In this document: piece after piece, positions 15,753 to 31,825 of the stretch
How positions within the stretch are numbered: the stretch's first letter is position 1
Layout: the number at the start of each line of letters is the position of its first letter
Assembly (NCBI GenBank): GCA_046704725.1
Contig: JBJKRI010000008.1
Location: 67,711-131,710 of the forward strand
Reading direction: 5' to 3'
Source of the DNA: Candidatus Woesearchaeota archaeon
GTDB lineage: Archaea; Nanobdellota; Nanobdellia; Woesearchaeales; SKIA01
DNA length: 64,000 bases
Notes under the pieces: generated by a model
What the model was told of the DNA's origin: nothing
The model's database searches: none
What the model saw: only the letters and a program-made list of their open reading frames with translations
Position numbers and translations under genes: made by a program

Positions 15753-16850
15753 TCACGCGCGACGGATCGCGTCGTACTCCTCGAGCACGATGACGTCGAG
15801 CTCGTCGGTATCGCTCACCACGGACAATCGGCCGTCGCCGACATCTACTATTTGACGCGCGAGATCCTCGCCCTTCGCGTCCAAGCCGATACCGATGACG
15901 GACACGGCGATACCGGCTGCGCGCGCCTCGGCGACCGCGGCGAGCACATCGGTCTCGGGATCGGAACCGATCGTGGGAAGCGCATCGGTGAGGATGATGA
16001 GATGGTTGGCGCCCTCCTGGCGAGGGAACGTCGTGACCGCGTGGCGCACCACGCCGGCGATGTCGGTCTCGCTTCCCGTGCGCAAGCCCGCAAGAGAGCG
16101 CAATATGCCGCGGAAATCCTTTCCCGGCGGGACGCTGCGCTCGACCTCCTTGCCGAAGACGCACAAGCCGACCTTGTCGCCCGCGGACATCGCCTTCCAA
16201 GCGAGGGCGACTCCCGCGCGCTTTGCCTGCATGATCTTCGCGCCGCGCATGCTTCCCGAGGCGTCGATCGCGTAAATGATGTTCGCAGCACCTTTGGCCT
16301 CGCGCTCAAAGGCGCGCAGGTCCTCGACGCGCAAGGAACGATGCCCCCGGCGCAAGGCGGTCTTGACGGACTGCTGGACGCTCACCGAACGGTATGGCTC
16401 GTCGACGAAGGGCTTTGTTTGCTCGCGCATGCCCGTGACGGCTCGCCGCTTATGCACGCGCTCGCCCAGAAGGCCGCGCGCGTCCAGATGCTCAAGCTCT
16501 TGCACCGCGAGCGATACCGCTGCGAGCTCGAGCGCGTCGTCGGTGAACGCGCCGTCCGCGCCGATGACGCCCTGCTCCTGCAATTCGTCGAAGTTCTGCT
16601 TGATGCGCTCTTGCAGGTGGCGCCGGAACTCGGGGATCGTCGAGTTACGCTCGACATAGTCGGGAGGATAGCCTGTCAACTGACGGACGAGACGGTCGCC
16701 GAACAAGCGCTCCGCCGAGCGATAGTCCTTGACGAGCTTGGCCATGAGCAGCTCGGGCGTGAAGAACATCGCGTTGTTGGACACGGACTCAAGCACCATG
16801 TTCCCGAGATCGATGTCGGGCTTGTCAGCGTCGAGCACCGAATGCATCAA
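15753..16850 (-). CDS. VWA domain protein (ChlD/BchD C-terminal-like); frame stays open upstream without a start codon
   Basis: MIDAS DASGSM, T in GSETDI, LTDA; SVKTALRRG..LRVEDLR segment typical of ChlD. Confidence 0.9.
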   Translation of the reverse strand: MMHSVLDADKPDIDLGNMVLESVSNNAMFFTPELLMAKLVKDYRSAERLFGDRLVRQLTGYPPDYVERNSTIPEFRRHLQERIKQNFDELQEQGVIGADGAFTDDALELAAVSLAVQELEHLDARGLLGERVHKRRAVTGMREQTKPFVDEPYRSVSVQQSVKTALRRGHRSLRVEDLRAFEREAKGAANIIYAIDASGSMRGAKIMQAKRAGVALAWKAMSAGDKVGLCVFGKEVERSVPPGKDFRGILRSLAGLRTGSETDIAGVVRHAVTTFPRQEGANHLIILTDALPTIGSDPETDVLAAVAEARAAGIAVSVIGIGLDAKGEDLARQIVDVGDGRLSVVSDTDELDVIVLEEYDAIRRA

Positions 16851-16968
16851 CCCTTGCTTGTCCGCGTCGCTTCCGGGCTTTCCGGAGATCTCCTCTGCCT
16901 CCGCGAACTCGGAGACATTAACCTCTTCTTGCTCGCCGGCGTCCTCACCCCCGTCGTCGGATTCGGCG

Positions 16969-17946
16969 TTACCCGCCCTCGCCCAGCTGTAACCGGTTCT
17001 CCTCGGTGTAAGCGGAGAACTCCTCGGCCACGTACTGCTGGGCGGTCTTGAGGTAACGCGCAGCGGGCTTCAGGGAAAGACGGTGCGCGAGCACGGACGC
17101 GACCGCCTCCGAGAGGTCCTGCAATGTCGCCGCGTCGTGGCCGGAGAGCGTGGCGTTCGCAGAAGCGCGCTCGATGAGGCCGAGCGTCGCCCTGACGGAC
17201 GGCGCCATCTCGAGGTTCTTGTCCAACCGCAGGCCGCGCACGAAACGCACCGCGTACGTCGTGAGAGCGTCGGGCACCGGCGCGTGGAGGCGCGCGTACT
17301 CCTTGACGATGCGCACCTCGTCCTCGAGGGTGTCCGGATAGGACATGTAGATCAGGTCGAAGCGGTCCAAGAAGACCTTAGAGAGCTCCTCGGTGCTGTT
17401 GTCGTCGGGGTTCATCGTGCCGATGAAGACGAAGGAGGCGGGGAAGTCCACGTCGTAGCTGCCGACAGTCGCCACCCGCTCCTGCAACACTTGGAGCATC
17501 GCGTTCTGCAGCTTGTCCGAGCAGCGGTTGATCTCGTCGAAGAACAAGACGCCGTTGTTCGCCTTGAAGATCTTGCCGGGAGTGAACGCCTCCACAGACA
17601 AGGGACCGTACTCCATGGCGCGCACAGGATCGATATCGCCGATGAGGTCCTCGGCGGTGAGGTCGGGACTGCCCTGGACGCGCACGAAACGCTCCTCGCC
17701 CGAGAAGGTGCGCGTCTTCGCCTTGCCGTCCGGTTCGCGACGAAACGCGTCGTCCGTCAACTCCATGTCCGGGAGCAATCGCGAGACGCTCTTGGCGAGC
17801 GTGGTCTTTCCCACGCCGGGCGGCCCGACGAGGATGACGTGCCTGCCGCTGAGCAGGGCGCTCTTGAGCTGACGCTTCACTCTGTCTTGTCCGATGATCT
17901 CGGGGAACTCCGCAGAAAGGAGGCCCTCGGTGAATTGCGATGGCAT
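16969..17946 (-). CDS. AAA+ ATPase, ChlI/MoxR-like
   Basis: IIGQD, GPPGVGKT, FFDEINR, GTMNP, LDRF, SVRA motifs; ATG 17946 behind TTTTAA. Confidence 0.92.
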   Translation of the reverse strand: MPSQFTEGLLSAEFPEIIGQDRVKRQLKSALLSGRHVILVGPPGVGKTTLAKSVSRLLPDMELTDDAFRREPDGKAKTRTFSGEERFVRVQGSPDLTAEDLIGDIDPVRAMEYGPLSVEAFTPGKIFKANNGVLFFDEINRCSDKLQNAMLQVLQERVATVGSYDVDFPASFVFIGTMNPDDNSTEELSKVFLDRFDLIYMSYPDTLEDEVRIVKEYARLHAPVPDALTTYAVRFVRGLRLDKNLEMAPSVRATLGLIERASANATLSGHDAATLQDLSEAVASVLAHRLSLKPAARYLKTAQQYVAEEFSAYTEENRLQLGEGG

Positions 17947-17979
17947 AGGCGCAGGGGAAAGCACGGACGGGTTAAAAGC

Positions 17980-18681
17980 CTATCCCGTCGTGTTCGTCGC
18001 GTTGCAGTTCGGGACCATGGTCCAGCCCGATGGCACGTCGCACGGCGTGTTGAAGGTGCGGCACTCGCCAGACGAGGTGTTCTCCGCGGTCGTGAGGACC
18101 TGCGCGCACAAGGTCTGGTTGGTCTGGTTCACTGTCTGGCCGACGGGCTTGATGCCCTGGTTGGGCGTGGTGAAGAAGATACGCTCCATACCCTGGCTGT
18201 TGATGAAGACCTGATATCCGAGCTTGTCGTAGTAGAAGATACGCTCTTTCTGGAGGTCCTGGCTCAATGTCGGGACGCCGAACAATCCGTAGATGTCAGA
18301 GAGATTGTGCCTGATGACGGTCTGGTTGACGAGGAACGGGTTAGCGGCCTGCGTGACGAGAATGCCCTGCACCTTGCCCTCCACCAAATGATAGAGGACG
18401 GCGCTCTTGTTCTGGCCGAGGTCGTACTCGATGTTGCGGATCTTGCCGAACTGATAGTCCTGCGAGACGTCTGGCTTGCCGAGGATGGCCTCGATGTGGC
18501 TCTGGTTGTCGCCCAGGCCCGTGCCGAAGACGCGGACCTGGTCCGCGGGGATGTTCTGGAGCAGGACGTCGTGGTAGAGGACCTCTCCAGGGACGTTCGG
18601 GACATTGCTCTGCCACGTCGCCTGATGGGTGCAGGCAGCCAAGAGCAGGAACGCCGTCACGGCGACTAGGAACCATCGCAT
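17980..18681 (-). CDS. lipoprotein with C-terminal Cys mini-domain
   Basis: LLLAAC lipobox; internal repeat (ILGKPD/LFGVPT); CAQVLT..GECRTFNTPCDVPSGW. Confidence 0.75.
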   Translation of the reverse strand: MRWFLVAVTAFLLLAACTHQATWQSNVPNVPGEVLYHDVLLQNIPADQVRVFGTGLGDNQSHIEAILGKPDVSQDYQFGKIRNIEYDLGQNKSAVLYHLVEGKVQGILVTQAANPFLVNQTVIRHNLSDIYGLFGVPTLSQDLQKERIFYYDKLGYQVFINSQGMERIFFTTPNQGIKPVGQTVNQTNQTLCAQVLTTAENTSSGECRTFNTPCDVPSGWTMVPNCNATNTTG

Positions 18682-18723: not shown

Positions 18724-19191
18724 TCATCGAGCCGCGACGGCCCAGCCCGCGATGCCGAGGACGGAAGCGGCGGTCACGATGACGCCGGCGACGATGACGC
18801 CGGCCACGCACGCCCAGAAGAACGGCCAGAAACCCGTGTCCAACACCTGGCTCGCGAGAGCTCCCGAGTAGACGCCGCTGCCCGGCAAGGGGACGGCGAT
18901 GAAAGCGGCGAGGGCGTAGGCGCCCCAGCGCTCGGTGGCCTTGTGGACCTGGCGGCGCACATGCTCGACGTACCGGTTCGCCAATCGGGAGAACCACTTG
19001 AAACGCATGAACCATTCGTAGAGCAGCTCTAGCGCCCACCAGACGAGCACGCCGATGATGATGTTCGCCACGACACCGAGCAAGAACGCCTGCCACCAGG
19101 GGATGCCGCCGGCGATGCCGACGGGGATGCCCGCGCGCAGCTCCAGGCCGGGGGCGAAGGTGAGGAGCACGAGCAGCAAGTAACTATTCAT
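18724..19191 (-). CDS. putative small multidrug export family (COG2426-like) membrane protein
   Basis: PGLELRAGIPVG and FIAVPLPGSGVYSG motifs. Confidence 0.85.
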   Translation of the reverse strand: MNSYLLLVLLTFAPGLELRAGIPVGIAGGIPWWQAFLLGVVANIIIGVLVWWALELLYEWFMRFKWFSRLANRYVEHVRRQVHKATERWGAYALAAFIAVPLPGSGVYSGALASQVLDTGFWPFFWACVAGVIVAGVIVTAASVLGIAGWAVAAR

Positions 19192-20452
19192 CGGCTTCCT
19201 CGATGCGCTTGACATTCTCGACGGAGATGTGCAGCTGCTCTTTCAAGTGATGGCGCAATGCCGCCGGGACCTGCTCTGGACGGCGCAAGGCGCGCTCGGC
19301 CTTGGTGTGGAGCCGGCCGTCACGCTCGTAGGTCTCCTCGTGGGTCTTCTTGAACCGTTCCGCGTCGGCCTTCGCCGAGACGGGAGGGCCTTGGCGCTCG
19401 ACAAGACGCGGCAATGAATGCTCTTTTGTGACGTACCACGCGTAGGAATCCTCTTTGTGCGCGAAGTGCCAGCCGCGCTCCACGACAGTGAAGCCCGCGC
19501 GCTCAAGAGACGACTCGATGCGCTCGAAAGCTTTTCTCACGCGCGCCCCCGCGATGTCGGGTTTGTCGTCGTCAGGGCTGCGCAACGTCACGAGCACCGC
19601 CGCGCCGGACGCTTTCGCCAGTCGTTCGCGCACGCGCTTCTCGTCGAAGGACTCGATGATGAAAAAGGATTCGGACGGCGAGCGCATGAAGGATTTGCAA
19701 CGAGCGACGAAACGGTCGAACTGCTCCTGGCTCAACGCGGCGGCCGCGTTGCGCTCCGGCTGGACGGGATCAACGATGAGCAGCGGCGCGTGCTTCTGGG
19801 GATCGATGGCGGTCAATGGATCCTTGTGATGGCCTTCAAGGTCGATGACGACGGGCGCCTTCCAGGACGCCGCCGCCTTGGCGAGCTCGTAGAACGACTT
19901 GTAGCGCACGACGAGCAGGTCGATGACATGGCCGGAGAAGCCACGGATATAGGATTCTGCCCCGTAGACTCCCGCGGCCTTGCAGAACTGCTTGGCAAGA
20001 CGCACCTCATCCTGCAATCCTTCTCCATGAGCGCGGAAGTACGTGACGTGCAGCGGGCTCATGTCGGTGACGTTGCGCGCCCGCGTCGCGTCCTCGACGG
20101 CGAGGACGGGGATGACCTCGAAATCGAAATCCCTGTAGGAGAACTGGAAGTAATCGCGGCTGCCGTGGATGCGCTCGGGCTTGAAACGGGAGAGGACGTC
20201 CTCGAGGATGTCCGGCAATTCCTCGTCCTCCATATCATAATCAAGGGCGAAGCGCACGAACACGTCGATATCGTGGTCGTCGCGCAAGAAGGTGTCCTTC
20301 GCGACAGAACCGCCCGGGACCGCCCGAGCCATGACCTGGCGCTTCTCCAACTCGGCATTGATGATGGTGAGGGCCTCGTCGCGCACGTCGCGCACGGACG
20401 GGTCGGGACGCAAGGCCTCCTTGACCTCCTCGAGCATGCTGAACACGGACAT
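19184..20452 (-). CDS. cca: CCA tRNA nucleotidyltransferase, archaeal class I
   Basis: GGSVAKDTFL..DIDVF, DMSPLH, YGAE..GFSG, DPVQPERNAAAALS. Confidence 0.95.
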   Translation of the reverse strand: MSVFSMLEEVKEALRPDPSVRDVRDEALTIINAELEKRQVMARAVPGGSVAKDTFLRDDHDIDVFVRFALDYDMEDEELPDILEDVLSRFKPERIHGSRDYFQFSYRDFDFEVIPVLAVEDATRARNVTDMSPLHVTYFRAHGEGLQDEVRLAKQFCKAAGVYGAESYIRGFSGHVIDLLVVRYKSFYELAKAAASWKAPVVIDLEGHHKDPLTAIDPQKHAPLLIVDPVQPERNAAAALSQEQFDRFVARCKSFMRSPSESFFIIESFDEKRVRERLAKASGAAVLVTLRSPDDDKPDIAGARVRKAFERIESSLERAGFTVVERGWHFAHKEDSYAWYVTKEHSLPRLVERQGPPVSAKADAERFKKTHEETYERDGRLHTKAERALRRPEQVPAALRHHLKEQLHISVENVKRIEEADE

Positions 20453-31754: not shown

Positions 31755-31825
31755 GCGCCCGTGGTGTAGCGGTAACATGCGGGCTTCCCAAGCCTGCGCT
31801 CCGGGTTCGACTCCCGGTGGGCGCA
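31755..31825 (+). tRNA. tRNA-Gly(CCC), intronless, CCA not encoded
   Basis: Acceptor stem GCGCCCG/TGGGCGC-A; anticodon loop TTCCCAA (CCC at 31787-31789); GGTTCGACTCC T-arm; TTTATAA upstream. Confidence 0.97.

Follow-up and report, generated by a model that had tools for sequence, protein, structure and literature searches.

A candidate prfB-like +1 frameshift signal between the AAA+ and VWA modules of a woesearchaeal locus

Two reading frames meeting at one stop codon

The stretch analysed here, called the window throughout, covers 64,000 nucleotides (nt) of the genome of a Candidatus Woesearchaeota archaeon, and this report concerns two adjacent open reading frames (ORFs) on its minus strand and the short junction between them. 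ORF1 (16969..17964, -) encodes an AAA+ ATPase of the ChlI/MoxR class, 331 amino acids (aa) long if translation begins at the GTG at 17964 or 325 aa if it begins at the ATG at 17946. Its translation carries a Walker A/P-loop, GPPGVGKT (residues 47-54; 17803..17826, -), in which G47, G50, G52, K53 and T54 are invariant in the alignment. ORF2, unbroken across 406 codons, consists of an acidic linker followed by a helical middle domain and a VWA domain (15753..16850, -, with the stop at 15753). The metal ion-dependent adhesion site (MIDAS) motif of the latter, D-x-S-x-S (16251..16265, -; D567, S569 and S571 of the fusion described below), likewise occupies invariant alignment columns.

Read on the minus strand, ORF1 finishes as CTG GGC GAG GGC GGG TAA, followed by C GCC GAA, with the stop TAA at 16971..16969 (-). 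The VWA frame is +1 relative to the AAA frame; it is open from about 17055 and crosses the AAA stop as ...ARAG NAESDD.... The candidate shift site, GGG TAA C (16968..16974, -), comprises the last sense codon, the stop and the next C, and its +1 reading would be (GGG) AAC GCC. Immediately upstream, in the slot where the relatives carry a hexamer at -12..-7, lies a Shine-Dalgarno (SD)-like element, GGCGAGG (16977..16983, -, with GAGG at 16977..16980). Reading TAAC as N yields the single-shift fusion product, referred to as P0001.

The linker itself spans 40 codons of the +1 frame (16851..16970, -; fusion residues 332-371), is predicted to be disordered and has no start codon. The first ATG, GTG or TTG of the VWA frame is the TTG/ATG pair at 16850/16847, +121/+124 nt past the AAA stop, which is also the sole canonical start of ORF2. 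The GC content at third codon positions (GC3) of the linker codons is 0.75, with 0.41 and 0.77 in the other two frames, for a gene-like threshold of 0.72 or more in a host genome of 60.6% GC. Orthologs from the same genus that begin within the linker are 53-60% identical to ORF2 of the window. The first-pass annotation of this DNA had described an AAA gene ending in GGG TAA C with the VWA frame at +1, joined by 40 acidic codons devoid of ATG, GTG or TTG before 16850, and each of these elements was recovered at its coordinates. A non-canonical start in the window was judged unlikely, by eye, from the open frame.

The junction across related genomes

Homologs of the VWA protein were found in 37 of 41 related genomes, in 328 of the 401 sampled genomes of the order (E <= 1e-30, a tally including 10 unpublished genomes) and in 149 of the 251 sampled genomes of the phylum, 13 of them from other orders of the class. 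Most of these records are labelled Candidatus Woesearchaeota, Nanoarchaeota or Nanoarchaeia archaeon, in agreement with the DPANN host proposed earlier, while some are labelled otherwise (e.g. uncultured Methanosarcinales archaeon). The junction sample was drawn from the loci of the related-genome and order-wide searches, 120 further listed places taken in listed order (passing over unpublished genomes and one place whose upstream DNA was too short), 80 more loci, 12 of the 13 other-order genomes and 15 of the weakest-scoring matches from the same order. After removal of duplicates, of two loci belonging to unpublished genomes and of one in which the VWA part is missing, 224 unique loci remained, with a GC content ranging from 27 to 66% (n=150).

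In 218 of these loci the VWA frame lies at +1 to the AAA frame, in 2 it lies at -1, and in 4 the two are in frame. The recurrence of the same +1 offset in independently assembled genomes makes an assembly error in the window very unlikely. All 218 loci with the +1 offset have a VWA frame that runs without interruption through the ORF1 stop and opens at -2 at the latest.

The composition of the junction in these 218 loci is strongly restricted. The last sense codon is CCC (62 loci), CTT (54), CGG (33), GGG (28), CCG (17) or ACC (17) in 211 of them, and CCT, CTC, TTT, CAA or GTT in the remaining 7. The same six codons make up 5.8% of the codons inside the AAA gene bodies (n=150 loci), and 10.0% of 1357 putative host genes have one of them as last codon. 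The residue that they encode is unconserved, being P, L, R, G or T in frame 0 and P, F, G or R in frame +1. The stop is TGA in 104 loci, TAG in 85 and TAA in 29, and a reassignment of the stop codon was rejected because all three stops occur at the site. The site of the window, GGG TAA C, is present in other loci too, and CTT TGA C and CTT TAG C occur in 41 and 13 loci, respectively.

The base after the stop is C in 170/218 loci, against 19% in the putative genes of the host. This preference depends on the preceding codon: C follows the stop in 54/54 CTT, 32/33 CGG, 17/17 CCG and 17/17 ACC loci, most of which also carry a strong SD-like element, and is looser for the slippery codons CCC (27/62) and GGG (18/28). 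The position is a synonymous third position in the VWA frame (GAY, AGY, AAY), and C/(C+T) at the junction reaches 86% compared with 48% for the same codon pairs in gene bodies.

These elements have been retained through extensive turnover. A FastTree phylogeny of 149 AAA proteins, from which the last 12 codons had been removed, requires a minimum of 63 changes of the last codon and 47 of the stop, with both elements staying within the permitted set. Three rows had been dropped from this tree: two that were too short and one (L150, G025:C11) whose AAA translation contains one internal stop. As the cassette has held through repeated codon turnover, it is maintained by selection rather than merely inherited.

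A further conserved element precedes the last codon by exactly one codon (3 nt). The hexamer at -12..-7 is GGTGAT in 60 loci, GGTGGT in 54, AGTGAT in 11, AGTGGT in 11 and GGAGGT in 10, amounting to 146/218, and the others are near variants. Where a glycine codon stands at -12, it is GGT in 88/119 cases, while GGT accounts for 20% of the glycine codons in gene bodies. The host 16S rRNA 3' tail ends ...GGAUCACCUCCU, which identifies these hexamers as pieces of the SD consensus. At least 6 contiguous pairs with this tail can be formed within -17..-5 in 168/218 loci, compared with 2.6% of 64,276 equal-sized in-frame windows in the same AAA genes; the scoring allows G·U pairs, since exact matching undercounts GGTGGT. 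The host does use SD elements, as SD 5-mers ahead of putative starts rise from a background of about 7 to a peak of 37 at -13..-9. In the 10 loci of the GGAGGT register, exemplified by L083 (GGAGGT TAT CTT TGA C), complementarity to the anti-SD is kept and there is no +1-frame start at -11.

Downstream of the stop, the linker contains a motif, E-E-L-x-G-K-L (E in 191/216, G in 195/216 and L in 162/215 loci), about 20 residues upstream of a second one, K-L-M-H-S-V-L. Its conservation indicates that the linker is translated and conserved as protein. The TTG/ATG pair at 16850/16847 falls within K-L-M-H-S-V-L. We considered this internal Met as the family start and rejected it: the Met is present in only 167/214 loci and conserved protein lies upstream of it, so that the internal TTG/ATG of the window is not the start of the family.

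Homologs in which the two modules already form a single ORF also exist. Those matching P0001 are 683-803 aa long, align over 94-99% of its length and are colinear through the junction; one of them is annotated as a hypothetical protein of a Candidatus Woesearchaeota archaeon (46% identity). The four in-frame loci read as DNA come from two Woesearchaeota, one metagenome-assembled genome (MAG) labelled Methanopyri and one Undinarchaeota. One of the two woesearchaeal fusions (L155, PEYS01000044.1) reads ...AAG GGA AGC CGT AGT TCT GAA..., with CCGTAGT out of frame; this looks like the relic of a +1 cassette after a small deletion, although it has the weight of an anecdote rather than of a test.

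Other junctions depart from the common form. At locus L025 (G108:C3) the offset is -1, and ten consecutive A immediately preceding the ORF1 stop take the place of the +1 cassette; here the recoding signal has apparently been swapped for the A-run type published for chlD. The second -1 offset, at L126 and L225 (the same junction), occurs at TTG GGG TAA C within a run of four G; this may be a site of -1 slippage on G_GGG, or else an in-frame fusion in which the homopolymer is wrong by one base. Finally, L238 (G406:C14), from another order, reads GGTGAT TAC CCC CAG C, with CAG in place of the stop, a run of five C and an ORF1 stop two codons past the CAG; it may be a stop-independent CCC_C +1 site.

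Recoding at the junction and the alternatives to it

Taken globally, these observations make it likely, and we hold this with good confidence, that ORF1 and ORF2 are one gene recoded by a prfB-like programmed +1 frameshift. The first-pass annotation had proposed a stop-dependent +1 shift giving a ChlI-like and a ChlD-like product, and the conserved offset, the cassette, the start-less orthologs, the linker and the natural fusions all support it. Mechanistically, most ribosomes would terminate at the TAA and release an AAA+ ATPase of ChlI/MoxR type and about 330 aa. A fraction, with GGG in the P site and the stop in the A site, would shift +1, read AAC next and go on to translate the acidic linker and, beyond it, the VWA domain, producing an AAA-linker-VWA protein of about 736 aa with ChlD-like architecture. 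As the signal for this shift we propose an SD-like element within ORF1 that can pair with the 16S tail, separated by 3 nt from a shift-prone last codon, together with the stop and the C behind it. That ribosomes do shift at the junction, the frequency with which they would do so and the part that SD/anti-SD pairing would play are all proposed here from comparative sequence evidence.

CUN, CCN and CGG codons are read by m1G37-bearing tRNAs, which are known to be prone to +1 shifts, and a stop followed by C is the weakest termination context in eukaryotes. The cognate reader of the GGG codon, tRNA-Gly(CCC), is encoded within the window (31755..31825, +), and tRNA-Gly(UCC) and tRNA-Gly(GCC) are encoded elsewhere in the host genome. 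The shift could come about either by re-pairing of tRNA-Gly from GGG to GGU, as the first-pass annotation proposed, or by plain out-of-frame reading of the A site.

The canonical bacterial prfB motif, as given in the portion of the source used here, consists of an SD-like AGGGGG, 3 nt, CTT T (its T opening TGA) and then C (bioRxiv 10.1101/2024.09.24.614795). The archaeal cassette matches it in anatomy and spacing: the SD-like element lies inside the gene, 3 nt ahead of a shift-prone last codon whose +1 counterpart takes in the T of the in-frame stop, and this stop is in turn followed by C. The prfB site CTT TGA C itself is carried by 41 of the 218 loci. No downstream structure stands out in the window either, where the 109 nt past the stop fold no better than shuffled sequences (z = 0.19). 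The two differ in that the archaeal family tolerates six P-site codons and not only CUU, that its SD-like element corresponds to the GGUGAU portion of the consensus, that of prfB being AGGGGG, and that the archaeal site closes a complete functional ORF. The last of these differences suggests that both products are probably used. Archaeal termination relies on aRF1 and not on RF2, and, given that all three stops are used, an autoregulatory loop of the RF2 release-factor type is not implied for the archaeal family.

Several points weigh against this interpretation, or at least against its simplest form. By standard rules, re-pairing in the +1 frame is impossible at CGG, CCG and ACC (67/218 loci), so a single slippage mechanism does not cover all loci. 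The SD-like aid proposed earlier is present in most loci of the family, but the element of the window is among its weakest members, with a longest exact match to the SD consensus of 4 nt (GAGG). The 16S tail used for scoring is that of the host and was assumed to be the same in the other genomes. The loci come from related genomes and are not independent samples, and those of the order-wide search are among the matches listed, with 184 further matches outside the sample. In the portions of the literature consulted, no demonstration of SD-stimulated frameshifting on archaeal ribosomes was found.

The start codons of the VWA frame provide the remaining objection, and with it the strongest alternative, namely that these are two ordinary overlapping genes, the VWA protein starting at a GTG or ATG at -11 by coupling or re-initiation and no fusion being made. 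A usable start of this kind, inside the SD-like GGTGAT, is present in 158/218 loci; 34 more have another +1-frame start within -30..0, and in 10 the nearest one lies beyond -30. A free linker-VWA protein could therefore be initiated, independently or by coupling, in most loci, perhaps side by side with frameshifting; Antonov et al. 2013 describe, for some constructs, both frameshifting and a start at the second ORF (PMC3711429). A fixed overlap would likewise keep the offset constant. In the window the -11 start has been lost (GCG), and the VWA protein would have to start at 16850/16847 without the linker, or would not be made. A start codon before the linker, together with a variable frame offset, had been named at the outset as a sign against recoding; the former is seen in the 158 loci above and the latter is not, with 218/224 loci at +1.

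Two overlapping genes would, however, leave unexplained the six-codon restriction, which persists across at least 63 changes, as well as the C after the stop, the position of the stop and the GGAGGT-register variants without a -11 start. In 16 of the 218 loci, window included, the open +1 frame contains no ATG, GTG or TTG before the stop, and in three (L042, L183 and L247) the -11 GTG is closed by an in-frame TGA (GTG xTT TGA); all of them still have intact ORFs and the conserved linker. In L172 the +1 frame opens only at -5. At -11, GTG and ATG occur in a ratio of 155:6; of the 63 loci without GTG at this position, 57 have a non-start codon, 6 have ATG and none has TTG. Moreover, the GTG sits within the SD-like sequence and not downstream of it. 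The excess of GTG is more in keeping with anti-SD pairing than with start-codon selection, and we read the -11 GTG/ATG as a by-product of the SD-like GGTGAT. Considering also that in-frame fusions exist in the same family, we regard the overlapping-gene explanation as unlikely, if clearly the one with most in its favour among the alternatives.

That the fusion arises already in the RNA, through slippage of the polymerase or through editing, appears very improbable. The run of ten A at L025 could realign during transcription, as is discussed for chlD A-runs in the section of PMC3711429 available to us, but the +1 sites have runs of only 3-4 bases (CTTT, CCCT, GGGT) or none (CGGT, CCGT, ACCT), and a conserved stop and an element complementary to the anti-SD are features of a ribosomal and not of a polymerase signal. 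Least probable of all is an artefact of the window (a one-base assembly error splitting an in-frame gene) or a VWA pseudogene: in-frame versions do exist in 4/224 loci, yet 218 independently assembled loci share the +1 offset and the cassette, and ORF2 is intact, with an invariant MIDAS, gene-like GC3 in its linker and close orthologs in its own genus.

Programmed frameshifting in this family of proteins has precedents. Frameshifted "magnesium chelatase" or chlD genes that give two subunits have been published (Antonov et al. 2013, PMC3711429; Atkins et al. 2016, PMC5009743; PMC9227772), as the first-pass annotation had noted. As far as their accessible text goes, the published signals are -1 shifts on A_AAA_AAR or A-runs, or AT-rich slippery sites with downstream structure (PMC3711429, PMC5009743), and hence different from the present one; +1 chlD frameshifts are mentioned as rarer (Kuznetsov et al. 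2022, PMC9227772). In both cases a single locus yields, or would yield, a small subunit resembling ChlI and a medium subunit with the AAA-linker-VWA layout of ChlD, homologs fused in frame exist, the pair is usually annotated as two adjacent genes, and L025 even carries the published A-run -1 signal. The archaeal signal differs in being +1, stop-dependent and SD-associated, and only L025 among the 224 loci has the A-run. Relative to the -1 A-run frameshifts in the available portions of those papers, the archaeal +1 cassette is a distinct type of signal.

More distant parallels are found in eukaryotes, where the antizyme-type +1 shift takes place at the codon 5' of the stop (PMC1874602). Eukaryotic antizyme and yeast Ty, ABP140 and EST3 share with the archaeal loci a +1 shift at the codon preceding a stop, but belong to another domain of life, lack an SD-like stimulator and depend instead on polyamines, pseudoknots or rare A-site codons. 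In yeast, P-site codons such as CUU, CCG, GCG and similar ones are known to promote +1 shifts without good re-pairing. For archaea, the sections seen of a review on recoding list a single proven case, the -1 shift of Sulfolobus fucA1, with +1 shifting only in a haloarchaeal virus (PMC8211752). In a literature search that covered main texts rather than supplements, no paper was found that describes, for these archaeal genes, a signal that is +1, stop-dependent or SD-associated. What the present loci would add to the proven case named in that review is a conserved +1 signal with full prfB anatomy in cellular archaeal genes.

The broader form of the proposal is that this is an archaeal, SD/anti-SD-stimulated and stop-dependent +1 frameshift, convergent with that of bacterial prfB and conserved across the Woesearchaeales and sister orders; we favour it by a narrow margin over its negation. 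Within the host genome no second cassette was clear: gene ends followed by a long +1 ORF amount to 136 adjacent pairs, almost all with ordinary nearby starts.

With dozens of substitutions at every element, the 218 loci constitute a natural mutational series for archaeal frameshifting, one that bears on SD/anti-SD action during archaeal elongation, on shift-prone P-site tRNAs and on poor contexts for aRF1 termination. The slippery codons CCC and GGG dispense with the C after the stop in more than one third of their loci, while the non-slippery codons almost never do. If the proposal is true, the permitted P-site codons (CCC, CUU, CGG, GGG, CCG and ACC) would define the shift-prone tRNAs of archaea, and, with the shift competing against aRF1, the proportions of free ATPase and ATPase-VWA protein would be tied to the termination capacity of the cell. 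Annotation is affected as well: most Woesearchaeota genomes list this highly retained pair as two genes or assign the VWA gene an arbitrary start.

The predicted products and the genomic setting

Sequence and structure comparisons relate the two modules to chelatase-type and MoxR-type proteins. In Pfam, ORF1 matches AAA_5 (2e-21), Mg_chelatase (2.4e-20), AAA_3 (9e-18) and AAA_lid_2 (5e-9), and ORF2 matches VWA_2 (1e-12) and VWA (2.3e-11). A sequence search of the PDB returned ChlI (6l8d, 2.6e-15), BchI (1g8p) and the VWA domain of BchD (2x31_A, 1.4e-5), while the best fold matches of the AAA module in Foldseek were the MoxR-like 2r44, NorQ of NorQ-NorD complexes (TM-score 0.75-0.79, normalised to the target), BchI, CbbQ and ChlI. 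An AlphaFold2 model of the fusion, built from 14 sequences (mean pLDDT 79.6), shows a confident AAA module (residues 1-322), a helical domain and a VWA domain (513-735). Residues 328-379 are disordered in this model (pLDDT <50), and the disordered stretch starts at the junction.

The assignment to a particular family is less direct. Against NCBIfam, the best scores are with TIGR02442, a putative cobaltochelatase (1.4e-43, 149 bits against a cut-off of 779), and TIGR02031, BchD-ChlD (2.2e-31, 109 bits against a cut-off of 499.6). A CobN/ChlH subunit (PF02514) was not found in the host genome, which is 99.7% complete, by a search that was positive in 5/14 control genomes; the first-pass annotation had likewise seen no chelatase H subunit. 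The AAA-linker-VWA protein has the architecture of a chelatase medium subunit, falls far below the chelatase family cut-offs and lacks a detected H/CobN partner, two features that set it apart from the frameshifted chlD genes. We describe it as a putative AAA+ motor of the ChlI/ChlD or NorQ/NorD type with a VWA adaptor.

As in NorQ/NorD, CbbQ/CbbO and RavA/ViaA, a MoxR-class AAA+ protein is associated with a VWA partner bearing a MIDAS, and by analogy with these MoxR-class systems the AAA+ hexamer likely acts via a VWA adaptor. Unlike the NorQ/NorD-type systems, whose components are separate proteins in PDB entries, the VWA module of the window is joined to a full ATPase and has no start of its own. 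The short and long products could assemble, and both would then build a mixed AAA+ motor with VWA adaptors, as ChlI/ChlD, CobS/CobT and NorQ/NorD do. Obtaining two subunits from one chlD-like gene would thus be a strategy found in organisms in which no chelatase H/CobN was found, and this absence points, by analogy, to a different client for the AAA-VWA motor.

The AAA module also varies within the family. In 11/13 fused homologs it contains a Cys-rich, zinc-ribbon-like insert (C-P-x-x-C ... C-P-x-C), and the protein of the window is shorter and without those cysteines (alignment columns ~80-100, ~17700..17760, -).

None of the neighbouring genes is universally conserved among 89 loci. A metallophosphoesterase-like ORF lies downstream of the VWA gene in 27 of them, a place that in the window is taken by a P-type ATPase, and each other neighbour occurs in at most 13 loci. 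Upstream of ORF1 the window has a 233-aa ORF with a signal/lipobox-like N-terminus (17980..18681, -) and a 422-aa ORF (19184..20452, -), homologs of which are found upstream of the AAA gene in 10/89 loci.

As for the tRNA complement of the host, ARAGORN found 36 tRNAs in the genome, with no tRNA-Arg(CCG) among them. Two of its calls are unusual, both on contig C5 and outside the window: a 96-nt tRNA with a four-base anticodon call (atgg) at 231656..231751, and a 93-nt tRNA-Tyr(ata) at 269574..269666. Both are probably intron-containing tRNAs that were mis-parsed.

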